In this document: one piece after another, positions 10,301 to 37,300 of the stretch
How the letters are laid out: every line of letters starts with the position of its first letter
Position numbering within the stretch: position 1 is the first letter of the stretch
Origin: Ruditapes philippinarum
Lineage: Eukaryota
Direction of reading: 5' to 3'
DNA: 64,000 nt
Assembly: GCF_026571515.1 (NCBI RefSeq)
Contig: NW_026865440.1
Span: forward strand, 248,001 to 312,000
Made by a program: the position numbers and the translations under genes
The notes under the pieces: model-generated
What the model was told of the DNA's origin: nothing
The model's database searches: none
The model's input: only the letters and a program-made list of their open reading frames with translations

Positions 10301-13300
10301 AGATCTTCTACTCGATCACTATACGATCGCTTCTCGACGTCTTATCTACTCGATCGCTACTTGAATTTTTTTGACATGTCTTTTGACAGCTAGACTGGTT
10401 CCCGATCGCTTGATTGTGCTTGATCGAATTGATCTGAAAGGCGGTGAGAATACATCATCACGCATTTTTTGTAGACTGAAAAAAGGCTAAAAAAGAACAT
10501 TAAGTAACAATATGTTATTGGTCTGCCGAAACAAAATACATGTATATGGTTTGCAGCAAAATATGAAGTAGTATGCACTAACTTTATCTACATTTAATGA
10601 GGTTGGGGTCATCTTCAAGTATTCTACTGATATTTTGATTTTTGCCATATAGACGTAGAAAAAATATGAGAACGATATAACAATTTTAATATTAGATGTG
10701 AGTCACCTTAAGGTTTATGCCGTTGATCGACCAATGTCCTTTCTTTATTAAATCCAACTGAGCATCACGTGATGTACAGAGATCTATCTACCTACATATG
10801 TACCTACCCACCTGATTACCTGCCTACCTACCTGCCTACCTACCTACCTGCCAAGCTACCTACCTGACTGCCTACATGCCTGACTACCTACTTACTACCT
10901 ACCTGCATACCTACCTGCCTGCCTACCTGACTGCCTACCTGCCTCCGTTAGGTCGATATGCTTTTAACATATTTTTCACAGATTTTCGATTGTAATTCTG
11001 TATTGCCCGGTCCCGTACAGTTTTCGTGCACTGCAGTTATTGTCGTGAGAGTAATTGATAAAAAAAAACATGAATTATATATCACTTGAAGGTGAAATAC
11101 ATGTATGTCTCAAATAAGAAACCAAAAGAAAAAGCCCGGTATCCAGCGTGTCGTGAAAACGTCTCATCATACAGTTACCTTAGTAACGTTAAACCGGCAC
11201 ACGACGAAAATGGCTTAGTTCATTCCTTTGATGCATCACATATAAGCGTCAAAATTCCGGGAAAAGTGTGTGTACGTATTCCTGACGTCACTAGAAAATA
11301 TGACGTCATTTGCCCTATTGTAACGTTTTCGTGTGGTCGTCAAAGAGTTGATAGATAGTTATTAAGGTATCGTATTTTTTGTAATCATTTTTTTAAAATC
11401 AATTAATCTATTAAATGACGCCGTAACTTTATATAAAGAATAATTTAGTTTGGTACACTATACTTTTCTACACATCAAAGGAGAGCTGAAGGGACGGCAG
11501 TTCAAAACACTTAATGATCTTCAAAATGCATTGTTCTGAGTAGTATAGGGGTCGGTTTGGCGTCACTTCTGCGCATGCGCGGCGGCCATATTGGATTTTT
11601 TATTTGGAATGACATCATCGTTCTATTTTGAGAATGTGATCATCCGTCTATTTTTAGAAATCTATTTTTAATCTCCCGGAAGTATACGGAGCTGACTCGT
11701 ATACACGATTTAGGGCTTGAATCGCGGACATTGAGGGTCAGGTCCTCGGCCCTAGACGGAGAGATAATTACCATTATGACAGATAAAAGAAATGTTTGTA
11801 AATAGATACGTACTTAACATTTTAATTTATAAAAAATAGTTTTTTAATAGGTTCAAAATAATATTGATACAAATATAACTCGTTTACTTACCTACATTTA
11901 GTAAGGAAATGACTGTCATAGCGTAACGTTCTTGTAGACTGCGCATGATCTATTTTTAGTCGCGGTATTTCACAACCACCAGGAGCTATTTCATCAGCCC
12001 CACGCGGGTGTCAATGAAAGAAAAAGGCATTAAGTACAGTCGCCGCTCAGTCTAGATTCACAATACCTAGCGGCACTATGTTGAACAAAAACCCTTTATC
12101 CTTCGTTACTAAATATAACTTTTTATTAATCACAAAAGAATCTATTATCCTTTCAAACGCAGCGACCGTCAAGTACAGTCGCCACTTAGTCTAGATTTAC
12201 AATACCTAGCGGAACTATGTTGAACAAAAACCCTTTATCCTTCGTTACTAAATATAGCTTTTCATTAATCACAAAAGATTAATAGAATTGACGGACCTTT
12301 TCTCTTCGCATGCATTCACAAATTTACGCTTTATATATCGTACCCCTTAATTAGGTTCCTTTCAAGTGCATACTACGGTCAACTGATTGCATATTTTAAA
12401 CACGGTTGCCCTTAACAACTGGTCAAATTTTGTGATTTTTATGAACACTTTAAATTCCCGTTTTTTTTTTTACGAAAATTGATTTTGAATGAATACACTT
12501 ATGTATACGAAAGTTGTAAACTGATTTTGAATGAATAACTTATGTATAAGAAAGTTGTAAACTGATTTTAAATGAAATTTATAATACATTTAAGCTATAA
12601 ACCGGTTTTTTATCGTTTGGGCAACCGTTTACGCTCAAAATTTTCGAGATAAAGTCGTTATAAGATAGAATAAACCGAAAGCTTTCGTTTTGACCCGGGG
12701 TTCTCGATTCGATTTTCAGCCGTTTTTGAGTTATGACGCAAGAGCGATTTTAAACCCTAAATTGCGAAAGTCAATAAAAACGTTAGAACTTTTTACCAAT
12801 CGATTCGTCTCGTCGCGCTGATTAAGAAAATATATAGTTTTATGGGTTTATCTTTTACCGTTTTCGAGTAATTCGAGTTTAAAGTCACCGGAAGTGACGT
12901 CACAGAAATTTCAAAATCGATTTTTTCCGTTATTACTTGACCGAATATACTCGTGTTTGGTATCGTTGGAAAGCATTTTACCACACCTGTTACCTGACGC
13001 TATTCAAAAAGCCATTGGACCGGAACTGAAATCACTGAAGCGTAAAAACGTGTTTTCTGTACCACGTCCGGACCGAACTAAGGCGTGTTTGGTATCAAAC
13101 GAAATGTCTTAAGCCGCTCTTTATGAATACGGACTAAAATCGAAATTAAAATCACTCATGCGTAAAAATCATTAAAATAACTAAAATAAGCTTACCCCCA
13201 GTCTTTACTCCTTGCCTATCAAACTATTTATGACAAGTTACTATAGCCTATCGTTAAACGGTCCAGTTACGACAGGTTTAAACCGGTATTGCTATTTTTG

Positions 13301-16300
13301 ATTAGCCAATGAAATTGAAGAACGGTGACGTTTAAAAATAGACAGCCTCGTTTTGAACCCACTCTTTTTCATTAACCAATCAAAATGGAGAACGATGACG
13401 TTTAAAAATAGACAGCCTCGTTTTGAACCCACTCTTTTTCATTAACCAATCAAAATGGAGAACGATGACGTTCTTACCAAAAATAGATATGACTCGCGCA
13501 ACGGAGAGTATATAAGAGAGCGCTTTAGCCCCCTCCGTCATTCTGACTTCAGAACTCTAACCGACAACATGGAAAACATAGCAGCTACTTTCGAAATGAT
13601 GGTGAATTCTTTCACCGACGCTGAAGAATTAATGAATTTTGCTGCGACATGGGGGATACAGGATTCCCCCGGGGTGCGGTTTCGACTATTTCAGTTAAGG
13701 AACCCACAATATGGAGATGACTTTGTGAATGAACAAATGGAAAGATTACTCGACAGTTTAAACGACACAATGCAGAACCGAGAAGACACGGAAAATTTTG
13801 ATTTGGCGCTAGAGTACGTAAGAGAGCAAGAGGAAATCGAGGGTGCAGTAAGAGCACTATTATTTGACGAAGAAATGGATAAGATGGCGACTGCTTGTGT
13901 GGAAGACGGGGAGTGGAGCCCTCAATCACCAGGGCTACAAGTAGGGAGTGGGGATGAGCCTCAAGCGGGACCCTCTCATAGGCCCGACGCCCCACGGGAG
14001 CTTCAGTATACGATAAGTAAAAAATCAGAAAGGACATACGCAACAAAAGCAGCGGTGGATCGTACATATCAAGTGAAAATTGATGAACAGTATAATGGAC
14101 AGAGACTGCAAGATGTGAGACAAGGACTTCACCAAATGTTTGAAGACGTGCTCGAAGAAGCCCGGGGCAATTTGGCGGGGAACGATTTGGGTCGTGTCGT
14201 TATTCATCATCAAGGATTACACGACCCCATCATTGTGCCCCTCCAGCCCTGGGACCAGTTGACCGCCAATAAAGTGATGGAAATCATCGAAAAGGTACTG
14301 AATAGCAACCAAAACTTGTCCATCGATGAAAGCTTCTATATTTCTATAGGCTCCATCGAATTACCAAAAGGAAGCGGTGGTCCACGACGAAGAATCACTA
14401 AACTAAAAGGAAAAAATAATTCGTTAAAGTTGAAAACCTCTATAGTGACCATCGAAAATGATGACCAAATGTGTATGGCCAGGGCGATCGGGGTGAGCTG
14501 GGCCAAGTTAAACAGATGTAGCCAAGACGAATGGAAAGAAATTGCTAAAAACCGCCAAAAGAAGTCTAATATACAGCTTATACTAGAACATCAGCAAGTG
14601 CCAGAGAGTTACTATAAACATCTACGTTCAAAATCTCGCGATGAACAGAGACAACTAGCGGTAGCCATCAGCCAATTAGCCGGAGTGCCCTTAGATCGGT
14701 CCGCTAGTTTAAACGATGTAGAGGCGTTTGAAGAAGTGTTGGGAGTGCGCGTGATGGTGGTCAGTGCTAGACTAGGTAACAAGTTCATAACTAGCCCTAG
14801 TAAGGACAAGCGTCCATGTATTTACCTGTATCTCGTGGACGACGACCACTTTCATGCCATTACCAGCATCACGGGATTCTTCAGCGCGATGTATTTCTGC
14901 GACCAATGCCTCAAACACTACGACCATAGAGAAAGACATCAGTGTGAGACCTCGTGTATAGTATGTAAGACGGATAATTGCCCGGAAACAGAAAATACAG
15001 TCAAATGTGATAACTGCAATATGACATGCAGATCAGAAAAGTGCTATAATCAACACAAGACAGTACCGGTACACAAAAAAGGAAAATGTAAAGGAAAACC
15101 CAATGGACTATCCCAATGTCAAAAATACTGGAAATGCCCAACATGCTACAAAGTCATAAGGACCGACAAAAGGAAAAAAGAAGACCATGAGTGCGGAGAA
15201 TATTTGTGTAACTCGTGCGAACAATATGTAATGGAAGGACATTTATGTTATCTCAGATCAATACCAGCCAAGGAACATTATAATTCTAAATTTATATTTT
15301 TTGATTTTGAATGTTGTCAGGATGAAGTGTCAGAGTGTGAAAATGGATATGTAGCGAGTAGAAAAAGAGATTGTAAAGACTGTCAATCACATGAGGTATG
15401 TAAATCTTGCTCTAAATGTCAACACTGTAAATCATCTTGGTGCGGAAAAGCCACTCATCGTCCCAATTTCGTAGTAGCACATACTGTATGTCCAAAATGT
15501 ATCGATAAACCATTGACCCCCGAATCTATATGTAAAAAATGCGGTACGCGGTGCGACGAATGTGACAACTCTGAGCTACATGATAATGAAGACCCAGGAC
15601 CGTGTCCGGGTAAATGTGGATTCAGAGAAGTCACGTTCGAAGGAGCCGACACTGCAGAAAAATTTGGTGAATGGTTGTTTTCCCCTCATCACGAATATTT
15701 CAAAGTATTTGCTCATAATATGAAAGGTTACGACGGCTATTTTCTGTTAGAGTACTTAATAGACCAATCCATGAGACCGGACAAGATTATTTACAGTGGC
15801 TCCAAAATTATGTATATGACAATAGAGTCGGATTTACATATCAAAGTGATTGACAGTCTCAACTTTTTACCTATGAAATTGTCCGCCCTCCCTAAAGCGT
15901 TTGGATTGACTGAATTAAAGAAAGGTTGGTTTCCTCATTACTTCAATACTAGCGAGAATCAGAATTATGTAGGCCCGTACCCAGATGCTCAGTGTTATGG
16001 TCATGATTTTATGAGTGAGAAAGAGAGAGCTGAATTGTTAGTGTGGTTGAGTGAGAGAAAGGACGACGTGTTTGATTTTAGAAAAGAAATGTTGGATTAT
16101 TGTAGAAGTGATGTAGATATTTTAAGACAAGCGTGTTTGAAATTTAGAGAGTTGTTAATGAGTGCTACGGGTGAAAGAATAGAGGTGGTGAATGAAAAAG
16201 GAAAGAAAGAAAAAACGTGGGTCGGAGCCGTGGATCCATTCGATTCCGTGACCATAGCTTCCGTCTGCATGAATGTCTTTAGAACCAAATTTTTAGAAGA

Positions 16301-19300
16301 AGAATGGAAAGTAAAATTAGAGGGCAGGGATGATTGGATACCTTCAAAATTAATAGACGGAAAGCTTTATGTGTTGCGCGAAAACGAATGGATCCTCGAA
16401 ACCAAACTCACGGGTGAGAAAGTAAGTGAGACAGAATTTGTAAGGACACCCATAGCGAAAATTTCTCCTAATGGTTATAATGATCAATATAGCGAAGCGT
16501 CCATACAATGGTTAGAATGGGTGGCGTGTACAAAAAACGTCAAAATTCAGCACGCTTTAAATAAGGGAAAGAAATCTTTACTGGGAACACGTTACAAATT
16601 AGACGGTTACTGCGAGGAAACAAACACGGCCTATGAGTTCCATGGTTGTATCTTTCATGGATGCCCTGATTGTTTCGCAGATAACCGAGAAGAAACGCGT
16701 CACCCACTCACCAACCAATCATTAGATGAATTGTACGCGTTAACGATGAAAAAGAAAGCTTACATCCAACAGTTAGGCATGAAATACGTTTGCATTTGGG
16801 ACCACGAATTCAAAAAACAAAAGATTCAAAATACTGAACTGAAACAATTCGTAGAAAGCTTAGATATAATTGATAGGTTAGACCCGAGGGAAAGTTTCTT
16901 TGGGGGTCGCACCAATGCCAGTCAACTTTATTACAAAGCGGAAGAACAGGAAAAAACTAAGTACGTGGATTTTACGAGCTTGTATCCATGGGTGAATAAG
17001 TATTATCAATATCCCGTAGGACATCCTACCATCATAACCAAAGATTTAAAAGACATTAAGGACTATTTCGGTATAGCTAAGGTCAAAATACTTCCACCTA
17101 GAGGATTATACCATCCCGTGCTACCGTATCGCTCAAATAACAAGTTGAAATTTCCCCTATGTAGGACCTGCGCCGATATGAAAATCAAAACCCATGCGCA
17201 TGTTCTGAACAAGAAAGAGAGTTGACTGGTACGTGGTGTACTCCGGAGATTCAAACGGCCATTCAGTTAGGATATCAACTTAAAAAGATTTACGAAGTAT
17301 ACCACTGGGAGGAATCCACACAATATGACCCAAAGACCAGATCAGGGGGACTGTTTGCCAATTACATAAACACGTTTTTAAAGTTTAAGCAAGAGGCAAG
17401 CGGTTCTCCTGACTGGATACACAGTCAGCAAGATATGACAATTATGTGTCTCAATACTTACAGAAAGAGGGAGTTTCGTTGGATCGGGCAAACATCTCGA
17501 AGAACCCAGGTTTGAGAGCTCTGGCTAAATTATGTCTCAACAGTTTTTGGGGTAAGTTTGGTCAGAGACTCAATATGCGCCAGACAGAGTTCTTTCACGA
17601 ACAACAGGTCAACCTCTTTTTCCAGTTGTTTGCCGATCCGACGAAAGAACCTTTAAATTTTCATATACTTACCAATGACATGATACAAATAGAATGGCAA
17701 TATAAACAAGACTGCCAACCCGAAGATAATAAAACGAACATCTACTTAGCTACGTTTACTACATGCTGGGCAAGACTCAAACTCTACAGTGTGCTCGAAA
17801 AGCTCGATAGACGAGTGCTGTATTACGATACGGACAGCGTCATCTATGTGAGTCGCCCTGGACAGTATGATCCGCCATTAGGAGATTACTTGGGTGAACT
17901 CACGGATGAGCTGAGTGGAGGGGAGCATATTGTAGAATTTGTGTCGGGTGGTCCTAAAAATTATGCCTATAGAACCAATAAAAACAACGAAACTTGTAAA
18001 GTCAGGGGTTTCACATTAAATTATACAAATAGCCAACTCATCAACTTTGAAAGTGTGAAAGATATAGTAACAGACCCACAAAAGAATTCAAATATCGTAG
18101 TAACAAACCCTAGTAAAATTTGTAGAGATAAAAGAAAAAGAAAATTGTACAATAGGGAAGAAAAGAAAAGTTATCAGATGGTGTATACCAAGCGTAGAAA
18201 ACTGGACAATTATGATACAGTACCATATGGATATTAGAATAAATTATTGCTGTTGTAAATATTTGTTCTTATTGTTTCGTTTTCTGTCACATGCGTTAAA
18301 AAAGTGTAACTGCTTTTTCAATTTTTGTCACTACTGATTCAAAAAGTGTTACGCATATTTCAGTTTTTGCACGTTTACATGTAATTTTCCATAGGGTATG
18401 TTTCAAAAAGTGTCACTGCTGTGTCAAAAAGTGTCACTGCTTATTCAAAAAGTGTCACTAATGTGTCAAAAAGTGTCATTGCTGTTTCAAAAAGTGTAAC
18501 TACTTTTTTCAATATTTGTCACGTATGATTCTGTTTTTTGTCACATGTGTATTAAAAATGTATATTATTGAATAAAAGTATGTAAGAATATGCAGTCTTG
18601 CTTATTTCATTCTATCTTTCGTAAGAATATGAACGATACCGAGTCCCATGAACCCGAAAGGGACACGTTTATTCACTTTTCAAAAGCGGATGAAGAAATA
18701 CGTTCTAACGGAGACAAGTGGCATTTATTAGGTACACGAGTACCCCAGGCTGAAATTGTCTACTTTTGCCAAATGATTATTGTCTACATTATTATCATCG
18801 TCTCAATTATAAATCTATCCCTTCAAAACGGTACTAGCGAATTGTGGATAAGTTTGCTAAGCAGTTGTATAGGATACGCCTTACCTAGTCCTAAGCTGAA
18901 GAAATAATAATGAAGGCATCTCTACCTTTCGAACCATGCTCCAGTATGTGTATAAGTGGACAGACGGGAAGCGGAAAAACGCAATGGGTGTACAAGTTTT
19001 TGCTTAACTTGAGAGATATGTATTCTAAAGACCCACCATCACACATCTTATATTCTTATGGTATTCATCAGGACTTATTTGATGAAATGGAACGGTCCAT
19101 TCCAAATTTTTACAGTAAACGAGGTCTACCAACAGCGGAAGAAATGGATGACTTTACCAAAGACAAAAGACATAAGCTGATTATCATTGATGATCTCATG
19201 CATGAAGTGATGAAAAACAAAGATATGGAGCTACTCTTCACGCAAGGTTGCCACCACAGGAGAGTATCTGTCATACTTATCACGCAAAACCTGTATCCAG

Positions 19301-22300
19301 GAGGTAAACATGCCAGGACAATTGCCTTAAATACTTGGTATATGGTATTGATGAAAAATTTAAGAGATGTGTCTCAGGTGGGAATATTGGGACGTCAGCT
19401 CTATCCCGGTAAATCGAAAGGATTTGTGAAAGCCTATGAGGACGCCTTAAGTACAAAACACGGTTATTTTTTGGTAGACATGAGTCCACATGCTGAGGAT
19501 AAATACCGTCTAAGAACGCATGTTTTTCCCGGCGAGGACCCTTTAGTTTATAAACTAACGTAAGAAGCAGTGTGAAACTTCTAAGAGTAACCATGGTCGT
19601 CACTTCTTACATCTCCTTAAAAGTACTACAACGACACAAAGGAAGGCATTGTTGAGTAAAATTACTAAACAGCAATTGAAAGCTCTTACTCAAATTGCCT
19701 ATAATATTCTGCGCTTTAAAATACGCCTTACACCTTCGGAGAAAGCTCAACTTAAACGTCAAAGACGTGTCATTCATCTAATTGGAAACAGATCAATAGG
19801 TTTCAAACAAAAGAGGGAGGCCATTCGACATAAGCCTAGAGTGATCTACACCCTGGTGAAAATTGCTTTCGCGTATTTGGAACCGGTATTGGCATAATGG
19901 AAAAGTTTATTTTGGTACCTTACGAAAAATATCAACGTATGCTGCAACTGAAAACCAAAGGGTTCGGAGAAGTAACGGAATATAAGCCTACCAAACTGTC
20001 ATTACCACCTCCGGGAGAACGGAAAAAGGCGGGAAAAAGGCGGGAAAATCTCAAAAAACTGCAATAGACTGAATATCATTTTAGAAAACAAAGACAATGT
20101 TTTTTTTCATATATTTTTATTGCTATATACAAAATAAATGAATACAAAAAATACATTTCAGAGTTTGTTTTTATTTACAGTATTTCTAACATATATATCA
20201 TTCCATTGTCTATTATACACATCAAAAGGTTTGACAATGTCTTTCATAGTCCTTCCTGTACATCTGGCCGTGATATAATATACACAATACAGTCCGCAGG
20301 TATCTCATTTAGTGTCCTGAATAGGATCACACACCGTCCAATACTTGTTCGTTAATACGGTTTCTAAGCCCACATTGTAGTCACTCGGTATTTTTCCGAG
20401 AGAATCAAAGAACTCGTACGGCCCTTGTCTCGGAAAATAAAAAGTAACCCAATGTTTCCCTGGCCCATCGCTCGTGTCTGTGTTCGAGATCACGAATTGT
20501 CCTATTTGTTTACGGATTTGATCAGCAGCGCACACTTTTACGGGGTACCCTTCGAGTAAACGTTCCAGTTCTAGATTATTCATTTCACGTAAACCGCCCT
20601 GGCTTTGTCAATATTGAGTACTTCTGGGAAGGTGGCGTACATAATCAGTGTGACACTCTCTGGTAAAGCCTCCGAAAATTTAAGTTCTAGCCGACAGTGG
20701 CCCTTCCTTTTCGTGTTGAATGAATAGTAGGGGTCAATATCTAGGGCATATAAGCAGTACCCTTTCTTATAATCTTGTTTTGAAATGTTCAAATCGCTTC
20801 TGTAGAGAGCTAATGTTCTGTAACATTCCACATACTGATCCGCCGCATAATTAGGTTGCATCGGCTGGCTAGGTAAAGACTGTCCATCCACATAGAGTCC
20901 TACAAAACTGCAGTTGTAATGTTTAAAGGGAGACACAGGCAAAATTTTCATTTCTTAGTTTTGAAATTTTCATTCATTATTCTGTAAATGTCCTCAAAAT
21001 GAATACACTAAACAGTCAAAGGAACAAAACGTTTCTCCATATAAAGAATAAAATGGTGTTTTCCTAACTTGACCCGCGTGGGTCAGGTTAGAGCGCTAAA
21101 ATTTCACAATAGTTGTCACTGTGTACTCTGGAAACGTTAAAAAACATGTCAAATCAATTACTTAGACTTGTTTCAATCATACAATATCCACAATACCTGT
21201 TATTGTAACTTCCAGGGTTTGTTTAAATCGCAGGACTTGTTTTTAAACTATTTGGTGATTCTGTTGGCGTCAAATTTTCGTTCAACATATATAGATATAT
21301 TTAAACTTCAAACCCAAAATATATAGAATTTATACAGAAATTCATGCTGGGACTTTAAGAAATGTCATTTTAGGGTGATTTGAGTACAGAAAATCATTTT
21401 TTATATTTTTGTCATTATTTTGCCTGAGTATCCCTTTAAAGTTGAATGGATTCTTCGAGTAATCGCCATTAAACGCGGCACTCGGGACTAGACCTACAAT
21501 CAGTTTACTAGGCACTAATCCTTGAAAGATATCGTCCGCGCTGTAACTGAATTGACCCGTAGCAATGGCTGTCGTTTTGATCTCTGTGCGTAAGTAAGGG
21601 TATATGGCTGGTATGTCTTGAATGAGTTTTTCGTGCGCTATAAGTACGCTACTAGTGAGTCGCTGAATACATAGTTTAAAATAAGCGTCCACTATTTTTA
21701 CTCGATAATCGGGATTGGTGGTGTCTGTGATGAGTCTAAATGGGTCCCGGGTAGGATGGAGTTTTATACAGACAGAGACTCCGTTAATGAGTAGCTTCGA
21801 CTGTTGAAACAAATCAACGTGTAATGGTCCTTCCATTTCTACAATTTTGCTACCTTTAGTGAGGCTGTATCTGATATATAGTCCGTTATTACTTCCTTTA
21901 CCATTATTGGTACCAACGTCTCCCGTATCTTTATGGAAGAGTTGGCTGGTCAGTAGGTTACTTTGCATATTTTCGTTGGACTGTAATATCGTGTCGATGT
22001 ACGCTTTGTAGGGATAATTGATTCCCGTGTGAGATAAAGGCGTTTGTTGAAGAGATACATCGACTTGACCGAATATGGTGTGTAATGGTAAATTGATTGG
22101 TCCAACTATTTCGTCCGGGTCTACTGCACTACCGTCCCCGTGGACAATTTGCAGCTTTAGGTTGAGCACGCTTCTTTTTAGATCCAAGTACGCCGATGTA
22201 TGGCCCGGTATATTAAATTCGAGAGCTGATGCATTCGTCACTTGATTTACTGGACGGTATGTAATCCATTCTCTCGATTGTAATGACGTGTCTGTAGGGG

Positions 22301-25300
22301 GTGTAACGAACAAAGACAGTTCTTCCTGATGAAAATCTTCCATGTTTAGAATTGAAATTCTGGATTTAGTCTCTTTCGTTTAGATGGTTTGTAGGCGGGT
22401 GTCGGTGCCTTCTTACGCTTTTGGGGCCCCTTCTTACGCTCTTCGCCCTCTTCAACCTTCATACGATTGACCTCTGACTTGGCTATTTCTATCGCTTGTG
22501 CGACGGGTGAGACCAGTTTTACTGGAGGTGACTGTTTCATTTCGGCCATTTTTCTGAGATGATTTCCGCTACCTACGATGTAACGGCCTTTATGATCGGC
22601 TTTAACGTACCCGTCCCTCAAGTCCTTGAAATGTTGATACCATTTCTCAGGGTCGGGTGTATAGGGAACCCATTTCTGTTGTTTATGATCGTAGACTTCT
22701 ATGGAGCCCATACTTTTTTGAAATGTAATACACAATGAAGATCGTTGGATTTGAACTCAACTGAGTTTAAATCTTCGTCTCTCAAATACAAATGTAAGGA
22801 GTTGAAATGATTCACAGTCACAGGTACGTATACCGGGTGGCTATATTCTACAAATTGAAGTTTCTTGTATCTCGAACCGACTTCAACGTTTCTAAGTACG
22901 GGTACTTGCGTGTTTCTTACGTAAGTTTGTTGTATCAGGTTGCAGCATAAATACAGTCTTTTGCTTCTCGGCGTAAAGTCACAGGTGAGAGAAGTTTCTG
23001 TGACAGCGCAAATCCAATTTCCATCAAAGGTGTACGATTTGGGAAACTGAATATAAAAGTCTGCGGGGTCGTTGTTCTTACGTATGTCCTGAGAATCTCT
23101 ACTACTGAGATAAAGGTAAAAGTCTGACATGTTTGTTTGCTTTCACAAATACATATGACCACGGTCTTCTTACGCTTCTCTAGTTGTCCGGATTTCGTCC
23201 ATAATAGTGTCAAAGAGATACGGCGGTCTTAACAATACGGGTACGAGCGAGTGATGACGTCTTAACAGCGATTTCTTTCTAGTCAGTGACACATTTTCAG
23301 AAGCTAGGGATCGTAGCAAATTTCGTCTTCTTTCAAGTAATTGAACATCTCTTCTCGGGGGATTAATGGTTCCATTTACCAATCTTTTGGCCACTTGCGC
23401 TATAGCCTTCATTTGACCCCCTGTCATATTAGTGATCATATTCTTTCTGACAGCTACAGTGGCATCTTTTAACTGGAGAAGAAAGTTGAGTTTACGGTAC
23501 ACTTGAGACTGGTTCATGGTTGATTTCTCTTGACGTTCACTCTTTCTTACGTGTGTAGAGTTCCAGTTCGATGAGTACAGGGTAGACTACGTCATCTATT
23601 TGTGACAGGTTTTTGATACCAGTGATTACCACTTTGCCGCTGTGAAAACAACAAAAATGGGCTCCTTCTCTTTTAAAATTAAGGGATGGAAACAGTTCGG
23701 GTTCATATACGACCTGTCTTTCTTTCGCCAACAACTGCAAATCTAACGCGTTACTTAGGGTGTGACTAGCCGATATTGTTATCAATTTGATCTCTTTCAG
23801 CCGCACAGTAAATCCGAGACGCTGTATACGTCTTGCATATTGGCGTAGTCTCTGGCGCCCCTCTGTAACACTGAGTGCTTTTCCGTTGCAATTGATTACA
23901 CCATTGGAGAAAACTAAACAATTCCCGCCAATGGTTTTGTGCTGCCAAATCAATCCGGGAAATGTTTTTGGATCATAACGAGCGTTTGCTATACGATAGC
24001 ATAACTGCTTCAAGTCAATGGAACAGCTCAAGTTAGCGCTGCACACGACGTTGGTAATTATCATGATGTGAAGTCTCGAATCTCAATATCAATACTGACG
24101 ATTTCTAGGGGGGTATATCTGTTTTATATACAAAAATGATCACGTGACTTAAGAGTACTGTGTCAGGTCCTTTTCTGGGATCCAGCTATCAAATTTCTTA
24201 GGCCAATGCAACCAACGTACTAGTACTTCCTTTCGTTTGTTTCGCGTCCTTTTCTTTAATATTTTTTCAACGTGGTATTCTGTATTTTCGTCCACACTAA
24301 CTGCCTGTAATTCTTGTTCGTAAAACGTGCCATCAATTTTCTCTTCATTGGCCCAGTCTATTAAGGTATATACGCATACATTGTCTCGTTTGAAACGGCT
24401 TTTGATTTTGAATATTTCGCCAGTCCACTTCTGAGAGTACTCTCTGTCAAACACGCTTTTCACGTGCGATACTCGTACTGTCTGACCTACTTTGAACTTG
24501 TAATGTCTGATCCTGTTGTTGGTTGGCCTGCCTTTGGTCCTAAGTAAGTACTGCTGAAGTCTGCTTTCTCCTTCTGACTCTTTGGTAATGTTTATTGGTT
24601 TATCGCCGAGACTTCTATGTATAGTTGAGTTATACGAAAGTACAATATTCCTGAGCACGTCAACATAACGTTGGGTTCTGTTTTTTATCATATATCTAAA
24701 CAGTTTATGCTTTAGCGTCTTGATACATATCTCCGCAAAGTTCGCCTTTGTCTCCGTATTTAAAGCGTAGAAATGATGAATGTCCATGTCCTGAAGATAC
24801 TTATTGACCTCTTTGCTTCTAAACTCCATGCCTCTGTCTGTTCTCACCGTCTTTGGTTTTCTAGACCCGGATAAAATTCGCTCTAATGCATTAACAACAT
24901 CGCCCCCTTTCTTGGTTTTGATAGGTTCACAATAGGCAAAGCGGGAGAAAATGTCTATTACCATTAAAACGTATTTATAACCGTCATTGTGTTTGGCCAA
25001 GTCAACCATATCCATCAAGTCCATGTCCCATTGACTATCTATCCCTTCTACAATGACGCGTGATCGAGGAAACTTCCTTCTGGCTCCTCTAGTCAGGGAA
25101 TAAGCCTGCTGACTTTGAAGCCATTTTCGGATTTTATGCCTCCCGATTTTAAATTTTCCCTCAGACTTGATATATTGGTACAATTTTTCTACACCTGAAT
25201 AGCTTGCTGGGTTGGATGTGTCAAAATACAAAGAAGACAAATATTGTTTCCAGTTAGACATGTTTATTGACAACAAATACAAATACACATTCTTACAAAA

Positions 25301-28300
25301 TTATAACAAATGTATCCACAAGATATTACAATACAGTGGAGTATAAAGTATGTGTTCTGGTGTCTTCTATATAACGTTCCAAAATGTCAAGTAAATGTTC
25401 TGTAGCTTCGCGATATTCTCGTCTCACTTGATAGTGTCTAAGCCATATCCAAACCATACAGACAAGTGTTAACATATTCAATGCCTTTGATGGGTCGTGA
25501 TAGCCTTATTATTGACAAACAAATTTGCTGCAGTTGTAGTTGAACTGAATCCTCCAAAACCGCAAGGTGTTGGTCTAGTTGTTGATACAAACGCGCCAAA
25601 TCCGCCTATTGGGGTCGGTTTTTGTTGAGGAGCGCCTACTATTCTTATATATTCGCAGTTTGGAGACCACTTGTAATGTTCTCTCAATGCACAGTCCGAC
25701 CTTTCCCAAGCACTCAATTTCACGTGACATCGAAAACACGCACACACGTCAGCTTTGCCGCTGTAATACAATCCTGCACTTGCCAACTGGTATTTATCTG
25801 GTAACATTTGTTTCGGATAGGTTTCAAACGTCTTCAGTCTGTTATCATAATATTCCATATTTTTGTTGAGGGGTTTGCAGTCAGTGACGTTCATCTTGTT
25901 TATGCCAAAGCTTCGTGGTGTTTTCATTTATATACACACGGTTTGATTTCTGATTGGATGTTATTTTTAGAATGAGGTTATCGATCTATTTATAGAACTT
26001 TTGTCATTGCTATTTATAGTCACACGATTTTACCAGTTTCTGCAATCATTGGGGTTACACTCTGAACATTGTAGGGCTCCTAACTGATTCATGTGGTCGC
26101 TTTGTAAATAACAGGGCACCACTGCGTCTAATTCTGGTAAATTCCTGCCAATCTCTGGCATCAACTCTTTCAACCGACTGTACTCGGCGGGTCTCAAACA
26201 TATCCCCTTCCTAGTCGGTACTACGTCATTTTCAGGTTTCCAAAACTGTCTGATGTCCACACATACACTGCCTTCACCCACATTACAGAACACGTTACCT
26301 CCAAGATGAGTGTTATAGGTCTGACTGTTTTGAAGTGTCTGGTCAACGTATTCTATCGCATCTGTTAAGTTTTTCCATCGCATTAATGTTAACCAAATAC
26401 CCTTTTTTGTGGGTTTGTCGTCCTGCCATTCTCTGATGTCAACTCTAAGCTCACCTTTCCATTCATTCACTTGCACATATCTTTGGTTTCCAAGACTGTA
26501 CTTGCATCTTGAATTGTTTGCCATGTTTGCTCGTCGAGTGTCAGAACTCTAATGACATAGGTGATCGTTACACCGTCTTTTATAGATCAAAGTCTCTTCT
26601 GATTGGTCATTTTTTTTCCGAGCATTTGATTGGTTACCTTCAGCCTGTAATAAAAGAGAAACTGCTGTTAGATTGGACAATGTCAATTCTAAATTTAGAT
26701 CAGCGCATGCGTAAGATGCATCGTAAATATGACTTTAGCCATTTAGTGATTGTACGTCATAGAGTAAACATCATGATGTAGTAAGTTAAGTTTTATTTTA
26801 AGTACATATCTTAGTTTCTGTGAAAAATGTTAAAAAGAAAAAGCGTTTATGTATGAGTGATTTTAATTTCGATTTTAGTCCGTATTCATAAAGAGCGGCT
26901 TAAGACATTTCGTTTGATACCAAACACGCCTTAGTTCGGTCCGGACGTGGTACAGAAAACACGTTTTTACGCTTCAGTGATTTCAGTTCCGGTCCAATGG
27001 CTTTTTGAATAGGGTCCGGTAACAGGTGTGGTAAAATGCTTTCCAACGATACCAAACAAGAGTATATTCGGTCAAGAAATAACGGAAAAAATCGATTTTG
27101 AAATTTCCGTGACGTCACTTCCGGTGACTTTAAACTCGAATTACTCGAAAACGGTAAAAGATAAACCCATAAAACTATATATTTTCTTAATTAGCGCGAC
27201 GAGACGAATCGATTGGTAAACAGTTCTAACGTTTTTATTGACTTTCGCAATTTAGGGTTTAAAATCGCTCTTGCGTCATAACTCAAAAACGGCTGAAAAT
27301 CGAATCGAGAACCCCGGGTCAAAACGAAAGCTTTCGGTTTATTCTAGCTTTCGGTTTATTCTATCTTATAACGACTTTATCTCGAAAATTTTGAGCGTAA
27401 ACGGTTGCCCAAACGATAAAAAACCGGTTTATAGCTTAAATGTATTATAAATTTCATTTAAAATCAGTTTACAACTTTCTTATACATAAGTTATTCATTC
27501 AAAATCAGTTTACAACTTTCGTATACATAAGTGTATTCATTCAAAATCAATTTTCGTAAAAAAAAAACGGGAATTTGAAGTGTTCATAAAAATCACAAAA
27601 TTTGACAAGTTGTTAAGGGCAACCGTGTTTAAAATATGCAATCAGTTGACCGTAGTATGCACTTGAAAGGAACCTAATTAAGGGGGTACGACGGTCGCTG
27701 CGTTTGAAAGGATAATAGATTCTTTTGTGATTAATAAAAAGTTATATTTAGTAACGAAGGATAAAGGGTTTTTGTTCAACATAGTGCCGCTAGGTATTGT
27801 GAATCTAGACTGAGCGGCGACTGTACTTAATGCCTTTTTCTTTCATTGACACCCGCGTGGGGCTGATGAAATAGCTCCTGGTGGTTGTGAAATACCGCGA
27901 CTAAAAATAGATCATGCGCAGTCTACAAGAACGTTACGCTATGACAGTCATTTCCTTACTAAATGTAGGTAAGTAAACGAGTTATATTTGTATCAATATT
28001 ATTTTGAACCTATTAAAAAACTATTTTTTATAAATTAAAATGTTAAGTACGTATCTATTTACAAACATTTCTTTTATCTGTCATAATGGTAATTATCTCT
28101 CCGTCTAGGGCCGAGGACCTGACCCTCAATGTCCGCGATTCAAGCCCTAAATCGTGTATACGAGTCAGCTCCGTATACTTCCGGGAGATTAAAAATAGAT
28201 TTCTAAAAATAGACGGATGATCACATTCTCAAAATAGAACAATGATGTCATTCTAAATAAAAAATCCAATATGGCCGCCGCGCATGCGCAGACGTGACGC

Positions 28301-31300
28301 CAAACCGACCCCTATACTACTGTTCTGAATAATTTGTACAATTCCAATCTTTCTAAGAACAAACATTTTATATTGATGTTATATCCTTTTAACTCCAACT
28401 ATTTCTCGTTAAACAATTTAGCATTACATGTTTTCATTTATTGGAAGGTCATTTGAGCCGTGCCATGACAAAACCAACATATTGGGTTGCGACCAGCATG
28501 AATCCAGACCAGCCTGCGCATTCGTGCAGTCTGATCAAGATACATGTTGTTCGTTCAAGCAGAGCAACCGATAGCGAACAGCATGTATCCTGATCAGACT
28601 CAACGGATGCGTAGGCTGGCCTGGATCAATGCTGGTCGCAAACCCATTATGTTGGTTTTGTCATGACGCGGCTCATTCTATTCTAGGAAGGATGCTGTTG
28701 AATTTTCCTGTACTTTATTGATACAAGACATTAGCAAAGTTGTTTATCAAGTTAAATTCTATTAAAATAATCCCACGTCTTCAGTTATTATGTTTCGGCA
28801 GGTGATGAAATCGTGTGTACATAAAAAAAATACAATAATAAAAATAATAATAAACACCGCCTAGCGGGAGTCATACTCGAAATGTTCTGACTCATCGGAT
28901 GACACAAAGTAAGGAATACTCCAACAAAACATTAACAACAATGTATTATTATGGACTGGAACGGGAACGGAAAACATGATTTTTCTCGCAAAAAGTTAAG
29001 CTTATAACACAGTACAGTCAAACTGGTAAATAAGGACCATCCAAAGAGAGAACATGCATGGCCTTAAATGACAAAAGGTATTTATTAGGAATGTCCATTT
29101 TTCAATGCAGGTTTCTCAAAAAAGTGGTCTTTAACTACAAGGTGGTCTTAAATCGGAGTTTGTCTCTAATCAAGGTTTGACTGTGTATCAATTATTGAAA
29201 GTCACTAGTTCTGGCTTCCAAAATTTTATAAGCCGCTATTTAACTTTTTTTTTCATCTGATGCGGCATTAAAGTTTTGGATTAGACCCGTAACAAAACCT
29301 AACCAGAATAACATAAGTTGATTTATTCTTATTTTTCACTTGCAAATACACTTCACCCAATCAATTCTTGTGCATTTTACGATAGAACAATTATTTTTAT
29401 ATCGTTCTATACCAAGTAAAGTATCAAAATATTAATACCGTCATTAAAATTGTCTATTTAACTGTAAAACATCAATTTACGCCGATTACAGCCAGCCATG
29501 ACATTCAGATGCCACGCGAGACCTCGTATGACGTCATTCGCGGGAACCGATTTGAATAGAGTCGTGTACTATATTTAGAACATTTTGTTGACATGATTTC
29601 GATATTTTTATTCAAATGATGTTTTTATTTATTTTCATTAATTTTTAGTACTTACATATGATTTTATTGAATATAAAAGTCACTAAATCACCTTTTTCAA
29701 TATCTTTAAAAAAAGTAATTTATAAAAATATTGGAAGCACATGGGTTCGTAAAGGTCAATCTCGTAATCACGTGGTCAAACATTTTGGCAATATGGCGGC
29801 CAAGTGCCGAAATTTTTACCTGTCGGAAACTATTAGGAAGTTTATGTTCATAATAAGATTTTTATTTGTCCATCCTTGGCTTATCAACATATTATATATA
29901 GTGTTATCAAGGTATACTTCACTTTACTTCATGGCATGTTCGATGAATGAATACGAGCGTGTCAGATTCCTGGCAACGATTATTGGTCGACTTTCCCTAC
30001 GGGGTTGTCTCATGTCATAGTATATAAACGGGTACGCTGAAGACCTTAAGCTAGAAAGTCACATGCATAGCGTATTTAAATAAAATCTTACTTGTTTTCA
30101 TCCGGTTATAACGTCTCCTCTCTAAAAATCTCTGAAAAATGTTTCCTTCATTCTGTCTGTTTTGCCTTGTTTCATCTGAAGAATAATTGAAACATTAACA
30201 ATTCAATAAAATCAGTTATAAGAATTATGATACCTACTTTCCAAGGCTTGAACCATTGTAATTGAATCTGTGCTATATAATAGAAGTAGCCACTAAAAGT
30301 CAACACTTTGATTAGTTGTCGAACTGCACTACGCAGTATTACCAGTTTAGATAGGATAGGATAGGAGAGATGGTCACTTTTCTTAACAACGAAAAACATT
30401 GTTTGGACCTAAATAGGGTATTTTGTCACTGTTTGAGGCCTGGCAAAAACCATCAAAACACGTCTATATGAGGGAAAAGGTTAAATAAAAAATCAGTTGT
30501 TCAGAAAAAAATAGTGTTATCTTTTTGTTAAAACATCGGCTTTAACAAAGATATAACAACAAAATTAATTCACNNNNNNNNNNNNNNNNNNNNNNNNNNN
30601 NNNNNNNNNNNNNNNNNNNNNNNNNNNNNNNNNNNNNNNNNNNNNNNNNNNNNNNNNNNNNNNNNNNNNNNNNNNNNNNNNNNNNNNNNNNNNNNNNNNN
30701 NNNNNNNNNNNNNNNNNNNNNNNNNNNNTTTGACTTGTGTTCACGTAAAATGATACGGCACTTTAACATTAGACAGTACTTGTCAAATATTGTACATGTA
30801 CATAAGAAGGTACTCAATCGCCATCTACATTAGTATAATTGTGTAATTTCCTTTTTGGATATTGAAGGAAATATAGACAGTTTGTATACTGGTACTGTCC
30901 AACAATATTGATCTGGCACTTCATTAACTTTCGTAAATATCATTGGATAAACACTGGTATCTAACGAATATATTGATATACTTGTAAGCTTCACACATCA
31001 GTGCGGTGTGGTGTGTTGGTATAGATCTGAAGTTATCTGGTTCTATTCGTTACCAACACCACGATATGAAGTTTCTTTTTCCCCTTTTTGAAGCGGACAA
31101 TAATTAATTTGAAACCGTTTTACTACATGTGGTTTAAAGAATCCTTTTAGGTTTTTTATTCACAATTATATTTGTTTCTTTTTATTATATCATTTTTACT
31201 AAGAATTAAAGCGCATTTATAATACAAATCAAATAATTAATTAATAAATGGTCGCCCCGCAGTGGCGCGGAACGAGATGCAAAAATTAAACGACAGGAGC

Positions 31301-34300: not shown

Positions 34301-37300
34301 CCAAATCTGTACATGTACAGATATGTATTTTCTTGAATATTTTATGTGACAATGTTAGACTATAGTCTCCAGGCAAACCTCGGTGCCCCCTTAAGAGATA
34401 GATGTTCTAGATATTTTAATGTGCAATCTTTGATATTTCATTTAGCATATTAGACACTGTCTCCCCTTTTCAAAATCTGGTACATATAGAGATATAGCAT
34501 TCATAAATATTCACAATTAGCAATCATCTTATGGACAAATTTCTGCAAGCCAAATTTCTCGGTACAATTATAGAGGATATACCGGGTTCTTGATATTCAC
34601 GTGGCCAAATTTCATTGACAATGTCTCTAGTCAAACCATTATGCCTTTAGAGATAGGCCGTTCTAGATATTTTCACGTCTTGCAATTTTTGACAATGTTC
34701 TCCAGCAAAAACTTCTCGGCACATTATAAAGAATATGGGGCTCTTCTTTTATTTCAACGTGACCCAATCTTTGACAATGTCTTCAGGTAAGGTTTCTAGA
34801 TATTTTATTGCGGCAATCTTTGGAATATCTCAATCGAAAAATTTAAAAATATGTAGAGATTTTGCGTTCTCAATATTTAAAGTGGCAATCTTTTGACAAT
34901 ATCTTCTTGTCAAATCTGGTTACAAAACCTGTAGAGATAATAGTTCTAAAATATTTCATATGGCAAAAATTTGACAAAAATTCTTCCATGCCCCAATATC
35001 TTTGACGTGAACCTGTTAGGGATAAGACGTTCTCTATTTATTTTTTATGAGCCCAATTTTGATTTAATGTCTCAAAGCAAAAAAATCTAGTTATGTGTAA
35101 AAAGATTATGCGTTCTTTATGTTTTATGTGTCTTAGGGAAATGTATTTCCAGCCTAAATATGCTAAACCTTTGAGTTTTAAAGATATAACAAATGTGACA
35201 ATCGTTGGCAATAACTCCTGGTTTAAATTTAGAGAATACGCCTTCTTGATATTTTATTTTGGCAAATCAAATTGACAGTGTCTCCTCTTCAAATATGGGT
35301 TTCTTTTTAAAAACAATGCATTTCTAGATATCTTATGTTCAACCATTGACAATATCACCAAGCCAAATCTTAATACATGTAGAAATAGGCGATCTAGATA
35401 TTTCATGTGGCAATATTTTGGATTTTATCGTCACTGAAATGTTGTACATAATTATGGACATTAAACGCTCCAGGTATTTCATGTGGCAATCTTTTGACAA
35501 AATGTCTTCAGGCAAATCTCGCACTTTTTGAGCAATGTTCTAGATATTTCATGCGGCAAATTGTGTTTAAATATCTTCCAAAGAAATCTAGGAACATGTA
35601 GAGATATGCGTTATTTCAATTTGACAATATTTGACGATATTCTCAGACCAAATCAAGTTACGTGTAGAGAGAGTCGATCAGATATTTTCATGTGGAAATC
35701 TTTGACAATGTCTTCCAGTCAAACCTTGTGCCTAAATAGAAAGGCGTTTCTAGATATTTCAATGTGGGCTATCTTTGGTCAATGACTGTGCAGTTAAGAC
35801 TGGTATATTTAGAGATACGCCTTCTTGAATTTGATGTGGGCAATCTTTGAAGCTGTCTCCCAGTGAAATTTGGTTTCTTTAAAAAACATGCATTCTATTT
35901 TTTTTATTGTTGCAATCAGTTCTCAAGCCAAATCTAGTACATGTAGAAATAGGTGATCTAGTAATTTGATGTGGCAATCTTTGGCAATGTTTCCAGTCAA
36001 ACCTTGTGCCTTTAGATAGATAGTGTTGCATATATTTCATGTGGCAATTTCTGACAGTAATTCCAGCCAAATCTGATTTTCCTTTTAGACAGGCCTTCTA
36101 GATATTTTATGTGTTAGTCTTTGACAATGTCTCCAGCCAAATTCTGGGTATATTTTTGAGACTGGCATTATAAATATAACATGTGACATTCTAGATAATG
36201 TCTCAAGCGAAATCCGATAAGGGTAGAAGTATGTTTTCTTGATGTTTTTATGTGGCAATCTTTGACAAAGTCTCCTTTCAAATCTAATGTGAAATGTGGT
36301 ACATATAGAGATTGACTTTCCAGATATTTAGTGTGGCAATCTTTGACAATGTCTCCGGGCACATCTGACATCTTTTCAGGTAGGCGTTTCCGATAATAAA
36401 TGTGGCAGTCTTTGCAATATCTCCTGTGAAATCTAAAACATGTAGAGATATGCAGTCTTGATATTTAATGTGTCAATCTTTGACAATATATCTAGACAAA
36501 TCAGGTACCTGTAAAGATAGCAGTTGTATAGATTAAATGTGGCAATCTTTGCCAATATCTCCAGGCAAATCAGCAACCTTTTGAGGCAGGCGTTCCCGAT
36601 AATGAATGTGGCAATCTTTGAAATATCTCAAGTGAAATCTAGAATATGTAGAGATATACAGTCTTGATATTTAATGTTTCAATCTTTGACAATATACATT
36701 ATGTATCTAGACAAATCAGGTACCTGTAAAGATAGCACTTGTATAATATTTGATGTGGCAATCTTTGGCAATCTCTCTAACCAAATCGGGTACATATTGA
36801 GATATGCGTTCTTGATATTTCATGTGGCAATCTTTGACGATGACTCCAGTAAAACTTGGTGCCTTTAGAGATTTGCGTTTTTCTTGATATTTTCATGTGG
36901 CAATCTTTTGACAATGATCTCTTAATCAAATCTGGTTCATATAGAGAATTGCGTTCTTGATATTTCATGTAGCAATCTTTGACAATGTCTCTAGTCAAGC
37001 ATGATGCCTTTAGAGATAAGCGTTATAAATATTTCATGTAGTAATCTTTGACAATGTCTCCTTTCAAATCAGGTACACATATGCGTTCCAGATATTTCAT
37101 GAAGCAATCTTTTATAAGGTCTCTAGTCAAACATGATGCCTTTAGAGATAGGCGTTCTAGATATTTCTTGTGGCAATCTTTGACAATGTCTCTAGTCAAA
37201 CCTGATGCCTTAAGAGATAGGTGTTTTAGTTTTTTCATGTGGCAATCTATGACAATGTCTTCAGTCAAATCTGGTACTTGTATGGACTATTGTTTTAGAC

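Follow-up and report, generated by a model that had tools for sequence, protein, structure and literature searches.

A core-only TATA-binding protein in a Ruditapes philippinarum Polinton and a candidate late-gene promoter box

Positions 248,001 to 312,000 of contig NW_026865440.1 in the Ruditapes philippinarum assembly GCF_026571515.1, a stretch of 64,000 nucleotides called the window here, contain a Polinton/Maverick element that spans window positions 11539-28321 (16,783 bp) and carries a gene for a TATA-binding protein (TBP). We describe this protein, its relatives, and a non-canonical octamer, YRTAAGAA, which lies before late genes of TBP-bearing elements and may be the site that the viral TBP recognizes.

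Both ends of the element read AGTAGT, and a 6-bp target duplication, GTTCTG, lies immediately outside both terminal inverted repeats (TIRs). The outer arm of the left TIR (11539..12170, forward strand), which starts AGTAGT, is 100% complementary over 632 nt to that of the right TIR (27690..28321, reverse strand), and the inner arms run on to 13166 on the left. Long TIRs starting with AGT, the 6-bp duplication and a length within the 15-20 kb range are those of a Polinton, as is the gene complement of protein-primed DNA polymerase B (pPolB), retroviral-type integrase (rve), A32-like ATPase, adenain-like protease, and double jelly-roll (DJR) capsid protein, common to Polintons, Mavericks, and adintoviruses (Polintoviricetes). 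This copy has decayed. The pPolB gene (13455..18237, forward; Pfam PF03175; likely start 13569) is broken into open reading frames (ORFs) at 13455-17225 and 17575-18237, and the interrupted maturation protease gene (20305..20583, reverse) encodes 92 amino acids rather than the 140-146 seen in the other TBP-bearing elements listed. The DJR major capsid gene (20580..22343, reverse) is interrupted by a host repeat of about 0.5 kb (~20921-21460); this repeat, at 20921-21460, is the sole part of the element with depth in two real RNA runs. A profile of 10 protease relatives matches S273R of African swine fever virus (E 1e-11) and adenain (E 3e-6), and the fold of a natural capsid relative matches the major capsid proteins of mavirus and Paramecium bursaria chlorella virus 1 (PBCV-1) at E 7e-14.

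The remaining genes are compactly described. The packaging ATPase (18910..19563, forward; PF04665) follows o105, a small conserved hydrophobic ORF (18590..18907, forward) whose homologous start is at 18629. On the reverse strand lie o121, a small ORF with a basic C-terminus (22346..22711); a putative minor capsid (penton) gene (22699..23130), so labelled from its position and size and matching PBCV-1 P1 best, though weakly (E 1.9); o115, a conserved 115-amino-acid ORF (23170..23517) that belongs to no Pfam family and whose closest Atlas clusters are unnamed and in part Preplasmiviricota; the intact TBP gene (23537..24064), encoding a core-only protein of 175 amino acids; an integrase with a chromodomain (24149..25261; PF00665, PF00385); a BIR (IAP-like) gene (25478..25935; PF00653); and a gene with two PC4 domains (26030..26584; PF02229). 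No RNA polymerase gene was found among the Pfam-annotated proteins of the element. Of 31 related contigs, 17 have PC4-domain genes alongside TBP, often in 2-3 copies, and such genes were seen once among TBP-less controls; their product could be a coactivator or a single-strand binding protein.

The TBP ORF contains two Pfam TBP repeats (PF00352, E 7e-29), and a phmmer search matched human, plant, yeast, and archaeal TBP (35 PDB sequences), with human TBP the best (E 1e-23). An AlphaFold2 model based on an 84-sequence alignment has a pLDDT of 96 and superposes on human TBP (1c9b) with a TM-score of 0.91 and a root-mean-square deviation of 1.7 Å, at 36% identity to cellular TBP. Yeast TBP numbering is used below, anchored by query residues 3-167, which correspond to 67-237 of 1rm1. 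An earlier note on this DNA, made from the sequence alone, had aligned the protein by eye to canonical TBP, and its description holds up in formal alignments. All four intercalating phenylalanines correspond (F35, F52, F125, and F140 are yeast F99, F116, F190, and F207), the TFIIB loop YEPELF is identical to that of canonical TBP, the basic helix RQYARRIQRLG aligns with helix H2, the second QNMV motif is lost, with KLITISAS in place of KIQNMVGS (Q158I, N159T, V161S), and there is no N-terminal extension, the core being preceded by two residues only.

Most of the rewiring of the DNA-binding saddle had been overlooked, namely V122N, T124N, V161S, and the changes at I194, V203, and L205. The canonical TATA-binding set comprises N69/N159, T124/T215, and hydrophobic residues at V122, V161, I194, V203, and L205; of the canonical residues only N69, V71, L114, V213, and T215 remain, and P191 is also kept. 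The replacements are N159T, V161S, V122N, T124N, I194N, V203H, L205C, R105Q, T112N, S118N, and E93R. The last of these, which we take to block TFIIA in human TBP (an effect that the literature searched did not turn up), may weaken TFIIA binding. The acidic stirrup predicted to contact TFIIB (E186/E188/L189) is present.

The same changes recur throughout the close family, defined as the best 120 of 139 matches, where N159T is found in 116 sequences, V161S in 115, Asn or Gln in place of V122 in 111 and of T124 in 113, Asn in place of I194 in 79, Asn, Thr, or His in place of V203 in 115, and Cys, Ser, or Thr in place of L205 in 106. The phosphate contacts R105, T112, S118, and Q158 are also altered in the family, and position 93 is Arg in 101 of 107 close homologues. 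Retained are F99 (114/114), F116 (119/119), F190 (118/120), E186 (112), and E188 (114), with F207 less fixed than the other phenylalanines (102/119). In a second set of 74 more distant short TBPs (33-49% identity), assumed here to be Polinton genes, N159T occurs in 60. The 42 canonical rows used for comparison were chosen by an NxV motif, so that N159 and V161 are invariant there by construction. Of 15 pairs, 12 allowed the ratio of nonsynonymous to synonymous substitution rates (dN/dS) to be computed (3 were saturated) and gave values of 0.08-0.24, which indicates purifying selection. A quick tree with 80 rows places the short TBPs together on one side (support 97), as a long-branch group apart from canonical TBPs (support 98). 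The protein is thus conserved and probably functional, with an altered DNA preference suggested by dN/dS and the family-wide saddle changes. The earlier note had read it as a functional TBP with altered TATA preference, and in this respect it stands; the cognate site that it proposed is unsupported, as discussed below.

The 1.4-Gb host genome contains 52 TBP matches, 10 of them full-length without stops, in addition to its own intron-split canonical TBP, and two divergent queries found no further TBP-bearing family there. A weak search found no longer or fused relatives, and scans of viral contigs found no relative of the Polinton TBP or ATPase. The TBP-bearing clade probably lives in molluscs, because the named homologues come from a clam. 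Other family members lie in bacterial symbiont bins or carry the name TBP-like 1 in clam annotation, which probably reflects contamination and misnaming; the warning is that such genes get annotated as host TBPL1 or appear in bacterial bins. The sole viral-contig match to a divergent alignment was an unrelated archaeal-type TBP (9965-10579) in a 77-kb haloarchaeal-like viral contig.

Canonical TATA boxes and initiator-like sites stand before polB, TBP, and PC4, presumed early genes. The earlier note had observed that the TATA boxes at polB, TBP, and BIR all read GTATATAA, a candidate cognate site for the viral TBP. All three copies are present, at 13508-13515 (+), 24124-24131 (-), and 25928-25935 (-). 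The BIR copy, however, abuts the first ATG, so that a later Met is the likely start, and the PC4 gene has TATAAAAG instead (26577-26584), together with CCAAT boxes and a TCATT 31 nt before the ATG. Although the ORF counted from the first ATG includes the polB copy, translation probably begins at the 39th codon, since two relatives have in-frame stops upstream of it, and the copy is therefore a plausible TATA box. In the putative polB early promoter (13508..13542, +), G-TATATAAG is followed by an initiator-like TCATT 31 nt before the likely start at 13569; upstream, a tandem duplication of about 65 nt (13386-13475) repeats a CCAAT box and the first-ATG context. The putative TBP early promoter (24094..24146, -) combines an E-box, CACGTG (24141-24146), with GTATATAAAA (24122-24131) and an initiator-like TCAGT (24094-24098). 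Among 24 de-duplicated TBP upstream regions, 14 contain TATAWA and 20 an initiator-like TYA[GCT]T 22-38 nt before the ATG. TATA boxes of the GTATATAA/TATAAAAG type with initiator-like sites thus look like early promoters for host TFIID. At the early genes (24064-24098, 13538-13569, 26524-26555), the distance from TCAKT to the ATG is exactly 31 or 34 nt (17 of the sites tallied at TBP genes), a spacing that puts ACATC/ACATG at +28 to +32, possibly as a downstream core-promoter element.

That the viral TBP itself prefers GTATATAA, the candidate site of the earlier note, and drives polB, TBP, and BIR is very improbable. The octamer does stand at all three genes, and related TBP promoters often have a G before TATA, but GTATATAA occurs at background rate: 9 copies in the window against 5.2 ± 2.0 in shuffles, 5 of 100 of which reach 9; 3 in the 16.8-kb element against 6 in 47 kb of flank; and presence in 2 of the 24 TBP upstream regions and at 0 of 16 PC4 starts. 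It fits the canonical TATAWAWR, and TATATAA followed by G is the site most often selected by wild-type TBP (PMC1636458). The TBP gene must also be transcribed before its product exists. We rejected GTATATAA as a special site of the viral TBP.

A different candidate, YRTAAGAA, was found by eye on lined-up gene starts of the 31 related contigs. Its YGTAAGAA form occurs 11 times in the 7-kb late block of the element, not at all in polB, and 4 times in 47 kb of flank, and all 11 copies within the element are in the late block. On the forward strand, TGTAAGAA at 18581..18588 lies 48 nt before the o105 start at 18629, with a second copy at 18620-18627, and CGTAAGAA at 19559-19566, at the end of the ATPase gene, precedes an o115-like ORF that is broken here. 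On the reverse strand, two CGTAAGAA boxes (22410-22417 and 22431-22438) precede the capsid start by 74 and 95 nt without an intervening ATG, boxes at 23075-23082 and 22914-22921 lie within the putative penton gene, the latter having the o121 start as the first ATG downstream of it, CGTAAGAA at 23167..23174 lies 44 nt before the putative penton start, a further CGTAAGAA in the last TBP codons (23544..23551) lies 34 nt before the o115 start, and TGTAAGAA at 25290..25297 lies 36 nt before the integrase start. Counting only ATGs more than 30 nt beyond a box, the first one coincides with the homologous start of integrase, o115, putative penton, o121, capsid, and o105 alike. Five of the 11 copies (18620, 19559, 19611, 23082, and, as a redundant copy, one of the capsid pair) add no gene of their own.

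As a control, 60 stretches around 30 places in the host genome were compared, comprising 7 TBP-bearing elements, 28 complete-type TBP-less Polintons, and 14 members of a non-autonomous family; 11 stretches with at most an ATPase or part of one were left out. TBP-less means here that a profile search found no TBP within ~10 kb of the ATPase, with three stretches cut by contig ends. De-duplication kept 138 of 170 gene starts for TBP-bearing elements, 48 of 54 for TBP-less elements, and 10 of 21 for the non-autonomous family. YRTAAG at -60 to -25 was found in TBP-bearing versus TBP-less elements at 14/14 versus 0/7 putative penton starts, 7/7 versus 0/1 o105 starts, 10/12 versus 0/3 o115 starts, and 12/20 versus 0/8 integrase starts, a pooled 43/53 versus 0/19, with the box 33-60 nt before the starts of these four genes. 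Counted by lineage, the contrast is 14/14 versus 0/7, and for the capsid gene, with the box allowed within 120 nt, 11/12 versus 0/6. Early-gene starts are almost without it (TBP 1/24, PC4 1/16, BIR 0/3), and the TBP-less controls share no hexamer of their own (best 4/19). A non-canonical box confined to the late genes of TBP-encoding elements is a trait of viral late-promoter TBPs and is seen in this sample too; the exceptions here are the ATPase, protease, and o121 genes and a set of likely satellites. The latter are the non-autonomous multi-copy family, which has a long ATPase ORF, mostly o121 and protease (54-66% to this element), and BIR in two cases, has no TBP, capsid, or integrase match nearby, and keeps YRTAAGAA.

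Some copies overlap a stop codon or basic codons, and the box could in principle arise incidentally from splice donors (GTAAG), Arg-Lys-Lys codons, or stop codons (TAA-G). This is scarcely credible, as boxes are found in every frame and also in non-coding spacers, the GT is missing from ATAAG variants, TBP-less elements with the same compact layout have no box, and no splice joint was seen at these places, in what are mostly DNA-like data and hence a weak test. The box also stays while codons change: in 8 of the 10 closer TBP-bearing penton genes the internal copy is kept although the codon varies between CGT, TGT, and CAT, which points to selection on the DNA. In the two without it, a copy stands 7 nt ahead of the ATG instead; the internal box is also missing from three controls and from the two TBP-bearing penton genes that are most distant.

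Several patterns link protein and box. Set beside TATAAAAG, the box differs at base 2, which is G in 41 of 54 positioned copies, and at base 6, a G that is fixed by the search pattern; after TAAG the sequence is strictly AA/AG (52 and 49 of the 54 copies). The C-terminal repeat of TBP contacts the 5' half of the site, and I194, V203, and L205 are the positions changed in yeast TBPm3 that let TBP accept G at base 2, as in TGTA (PMC1636458). TBPm3 (I194F, V203T, L205V) and the Polinton TBP are thus altered at the same three positions, and the G at base 2 of the box is like that of TGTAAA, but TBPm3 has different replacement residues, is engineered, and still binds TATA. In lineages with F190/P191 replaced or with F207H, base 2 is A in 12 of 12 positioned copies, versus G in 41 of 42 in the others.

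These patterns lead us to propose, with a probability of roughly 0.6, that the viral TBP is a late-gene promoter factor that reads YRTAAGAA with host TFIIB and RNA polymerase II after a host-run early programme, with binding, start sites, and timing deduced from the sequence patterns. Host TFIID would first transcribe polB, PC4, BIR, and TBP from TATA and initiator elements. The viral TBP would then bind and bend YRTAAGAA in place of TATA, a box that can be read as TATAAAAG in which base 2 may be G instead of A and base 6 is G. Its 5' half would fit the C-terminal pocket (194/203/205 and 159/161) and its 3' half the new Asn pair 122/124, and the intact acidic stirrup would recruit host TFIIB and RNA polymerase II to the capsid-module and integrase genes. 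Transcription would start ~30 nt downstream of the box, often a few bases before the ATG.

The start position is suggested by spacing. Box-to-ATG distances show a sharp floor of 33 nt and are commonest at 34-37; a further 11 copies lie at 7-14, and the interval from -15 to -32 is empty. ATGs after the box occur at 17 of 270 sites for positions 7-11, 8 of 972 for 12-29 (25 of 1242 for 7-29 together), and 1 of 817 from position 32 on (12-29 versus 32+, p 0.045). Both the floor and the ATG pattern fit a transcript start ~30 nt downstream of the box, and in herpesviruses the TATT box likewise occupies the TATA position (PMC4893493). A competing explanation makes YRTAAG the start site itself, read by a helper-virus RNA polymerase or another factor, with TBP serving the early genes or something else. 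Its core, TAAG, is the baculovirus late start motif (PMC9786725), the early TATA with TCAKT parallels the baculovirus early TATA/CAGT, and the 11 copies at 7-14 nt would be natural under it. We consider it unlikely, given the absence of copies from -15 to -32 and the pile-up at -34 to -37, the ATGs, many out of frame, at box positions 8-24 and not from 32 on, the strict AA/AG after TAAG, the lack of an element-encoded RNA polymerase, the absence of the box from complete TBP-less Polintons of the same host, and the way base 2 tracks TBP residues.

Several observations weigh against a late-promoter role for the viral TBP. The early TCAKT and the box are equally far from the ATG (31-34 nt for TCAKT), as would suit YRTAAG as a start site; no initiator peak was found 30-33 nt after the box in 19 long leaders; and the implied leaders of 2-7 nt are short. 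In two real RNA runs (X23 and X24; tissue unspecified, 6 and 12 in 100 of each run read), depth was zero in both bins over the TBP gene. Two further runs labelled RNA (X21 and X22) were treated as DNA, since their coverage is even over TIRs, spacers, and both strands and includes no splice joints, and four contig sets likewise look like DNA and gave no start sites. YRTAAGAA was found on the same TBP-bearing loci in which it was later counted. It is absent at -60 to -25 from ATPase (0/5), protease (0/6), and o121 (0/8) starts and from 8 of 20 integrase starts, and the TBP-less non-autonomous family carries it at 4 of 8 ATPase, protease, and o121 starts, an exception that also favours YRTAAG as a start site, although it fits activation in trans as well. 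The two groups with A at base 2 are apart in the quick tree, but starred branches force only one change. The mapping of V203 rests on MAFFT and the model strand, and HMMER and BLAST place a gap there. Epstein-Barr virus (EBV) BcRF1 binds TATA and TATT alike in vitro (PMC4893493), so that saddle changes need not alone give selectivity.

A final point of this kind is phylogenetic, in that elements with TBP all lie on one side of the capsid tree (support 90), and TBP with box versus neither is therefore a single evolutionary contrast. Such a contrast would also be expected if the box were read by another factor, encoded by the element or the host, that arose in the same clade, and TBP were either a helper of relaxed specificity or a decoy titrating host TFIIB or further partners of TBP. 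Several small uncharacterised ORFs and PC4 travel with TBP, the changed phosphate contacts at R105, T112, S118, and Q158 could weaken DNA binding, and the Arg at position 93 also counts in favour of this explanation. A decoy, however, would not need four phenylalanines and invariant new polar residues on its DNA face; the herpesvirus parallel at 122/124 likewise speaks against it, as does the way base 2 covaries with the C-terminal Phe pair. We hold this explanation to be about as improbable as YRTAAG being the start site.

The proposed late-promoter TBP can be placed among known systems. It shares with cellular TBP (human 1c9b, yeast 1ytb) the two-repeat saddle, the four phenylalanines, the YEPELF stirrup, and helix H2, and differs in being intronless and mobile, with no N-terminal tail and with changed saddle residues. 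TRF2/TBPL1 is also a divergent TBP paralogue, and one family entry is labelled TBP-like 1, but TRF2 has lost the intercalating phenylalanines and does not bind TATA (PMC10005294), whereas the Polinton TBP keeps all four. Closest in its saddle is the herpesvirus vTBP family, which includes ORF24 of KSHV (Kaposi's sarcoma-associated herpesvirus), EBV BcRF1, and cytomegalovirus UL87. KSHV ORF24 is a proven late-promoter TBP mimic in which Asn stands in place of both V122 and T124, Ser in place of L205, and a polar residue in place of V161; late transcription depends on its Asn and Phe residues (PMC12529657). The two families share the viral TBP fold, the four phenylalanines, a polar saddle with N122/N124, and a small polar residue at 205, and both are paired with a non-canonical late box, TATT there and, putatively, YRTAAGAA here. 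The herpesvirus proteins are large, work in a six-factor complex, bind RNA polymerase II directly, and lack the TFIIB acidic residues, whereas the Polinton TBP is a bare 175-amino-acid core that keeps E186/E188 and only one of the two central Asn. No herpesvirus vTBP-family protein was among the TBP sequence matches, and the likeness has most likely arisen by convergence. Some giant viruses encode TBP-like proteins, such as Heterosigma akashiwo virus TBP and asfarvirus B263R, that have the same fold (Foldseek against BFVD, E 3e-11 to 1e-5) at 10-21% identity. Giant viruses with such proteins carry their own RNA polymerase; the Polinton does not.

More tentatively, a captured cellular TBP may have been turned into a one-gene late switch, a natural altered-specificity variant that converged on the herpesvirus Asn pair, co-evolves base by base with its box, and is used in trans by satellites; we hold this fuller account with somewhat more doubt than assurance. 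Viral late-promoter TBPs as such are already known, and the candidate Polinton TBP/box pair would be an addition to them. Animal Polintons lack an RNA polymerase, and the way in which they time the expression of their capsid genes matters for the question of whether such viruses are self-sufficient; the pair makes this timing testable with one small protein and an 8-bp site. If the proposal is correct, animal Polintons would have their first defined early/late programme, and late promoters of the herpesvirus type their simplest system, with an independent origin of the same saddle changes; nature would also have supplied a series of orthogonal TBP-promoter pairs and put the TBP-DNA recognition code (the TBPm3 pocket and the central Asn) to the test. 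In the literature searched, where figures, supplements, and subscription journals could hold a mention, neither a Polinton TBP nor a late box is described apart from a figure legend in Starrett et al. (PMC8502044) and its preprint. The legend names TBP on the map of one MELD virus, without analysis, and a supplement of that paper has no match for TBP or TATA; in a term search, a 2026 preprint on Polinton-like viruses (10.64898/2026.06.19.733378) did not mention TBP, TATA, or promoter.

Other features of the surroundings include a short host repeat of very high copy (28450-28488, depth >50,000) just outside the right TIR, and a second, TBP-less Polinton about 80 kb downstream on the same contig (contig positions 354000-359000). 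Satellite arrays occupy 35300-41500, 56660-57380, and 58780-62050 of the window, with units of 69 nt (with inverted blocks), 34 nt, and 29 nt, and a single ORF of 768 amino acids at 1894-4200 on the reverse strand carries a NACHT domain.

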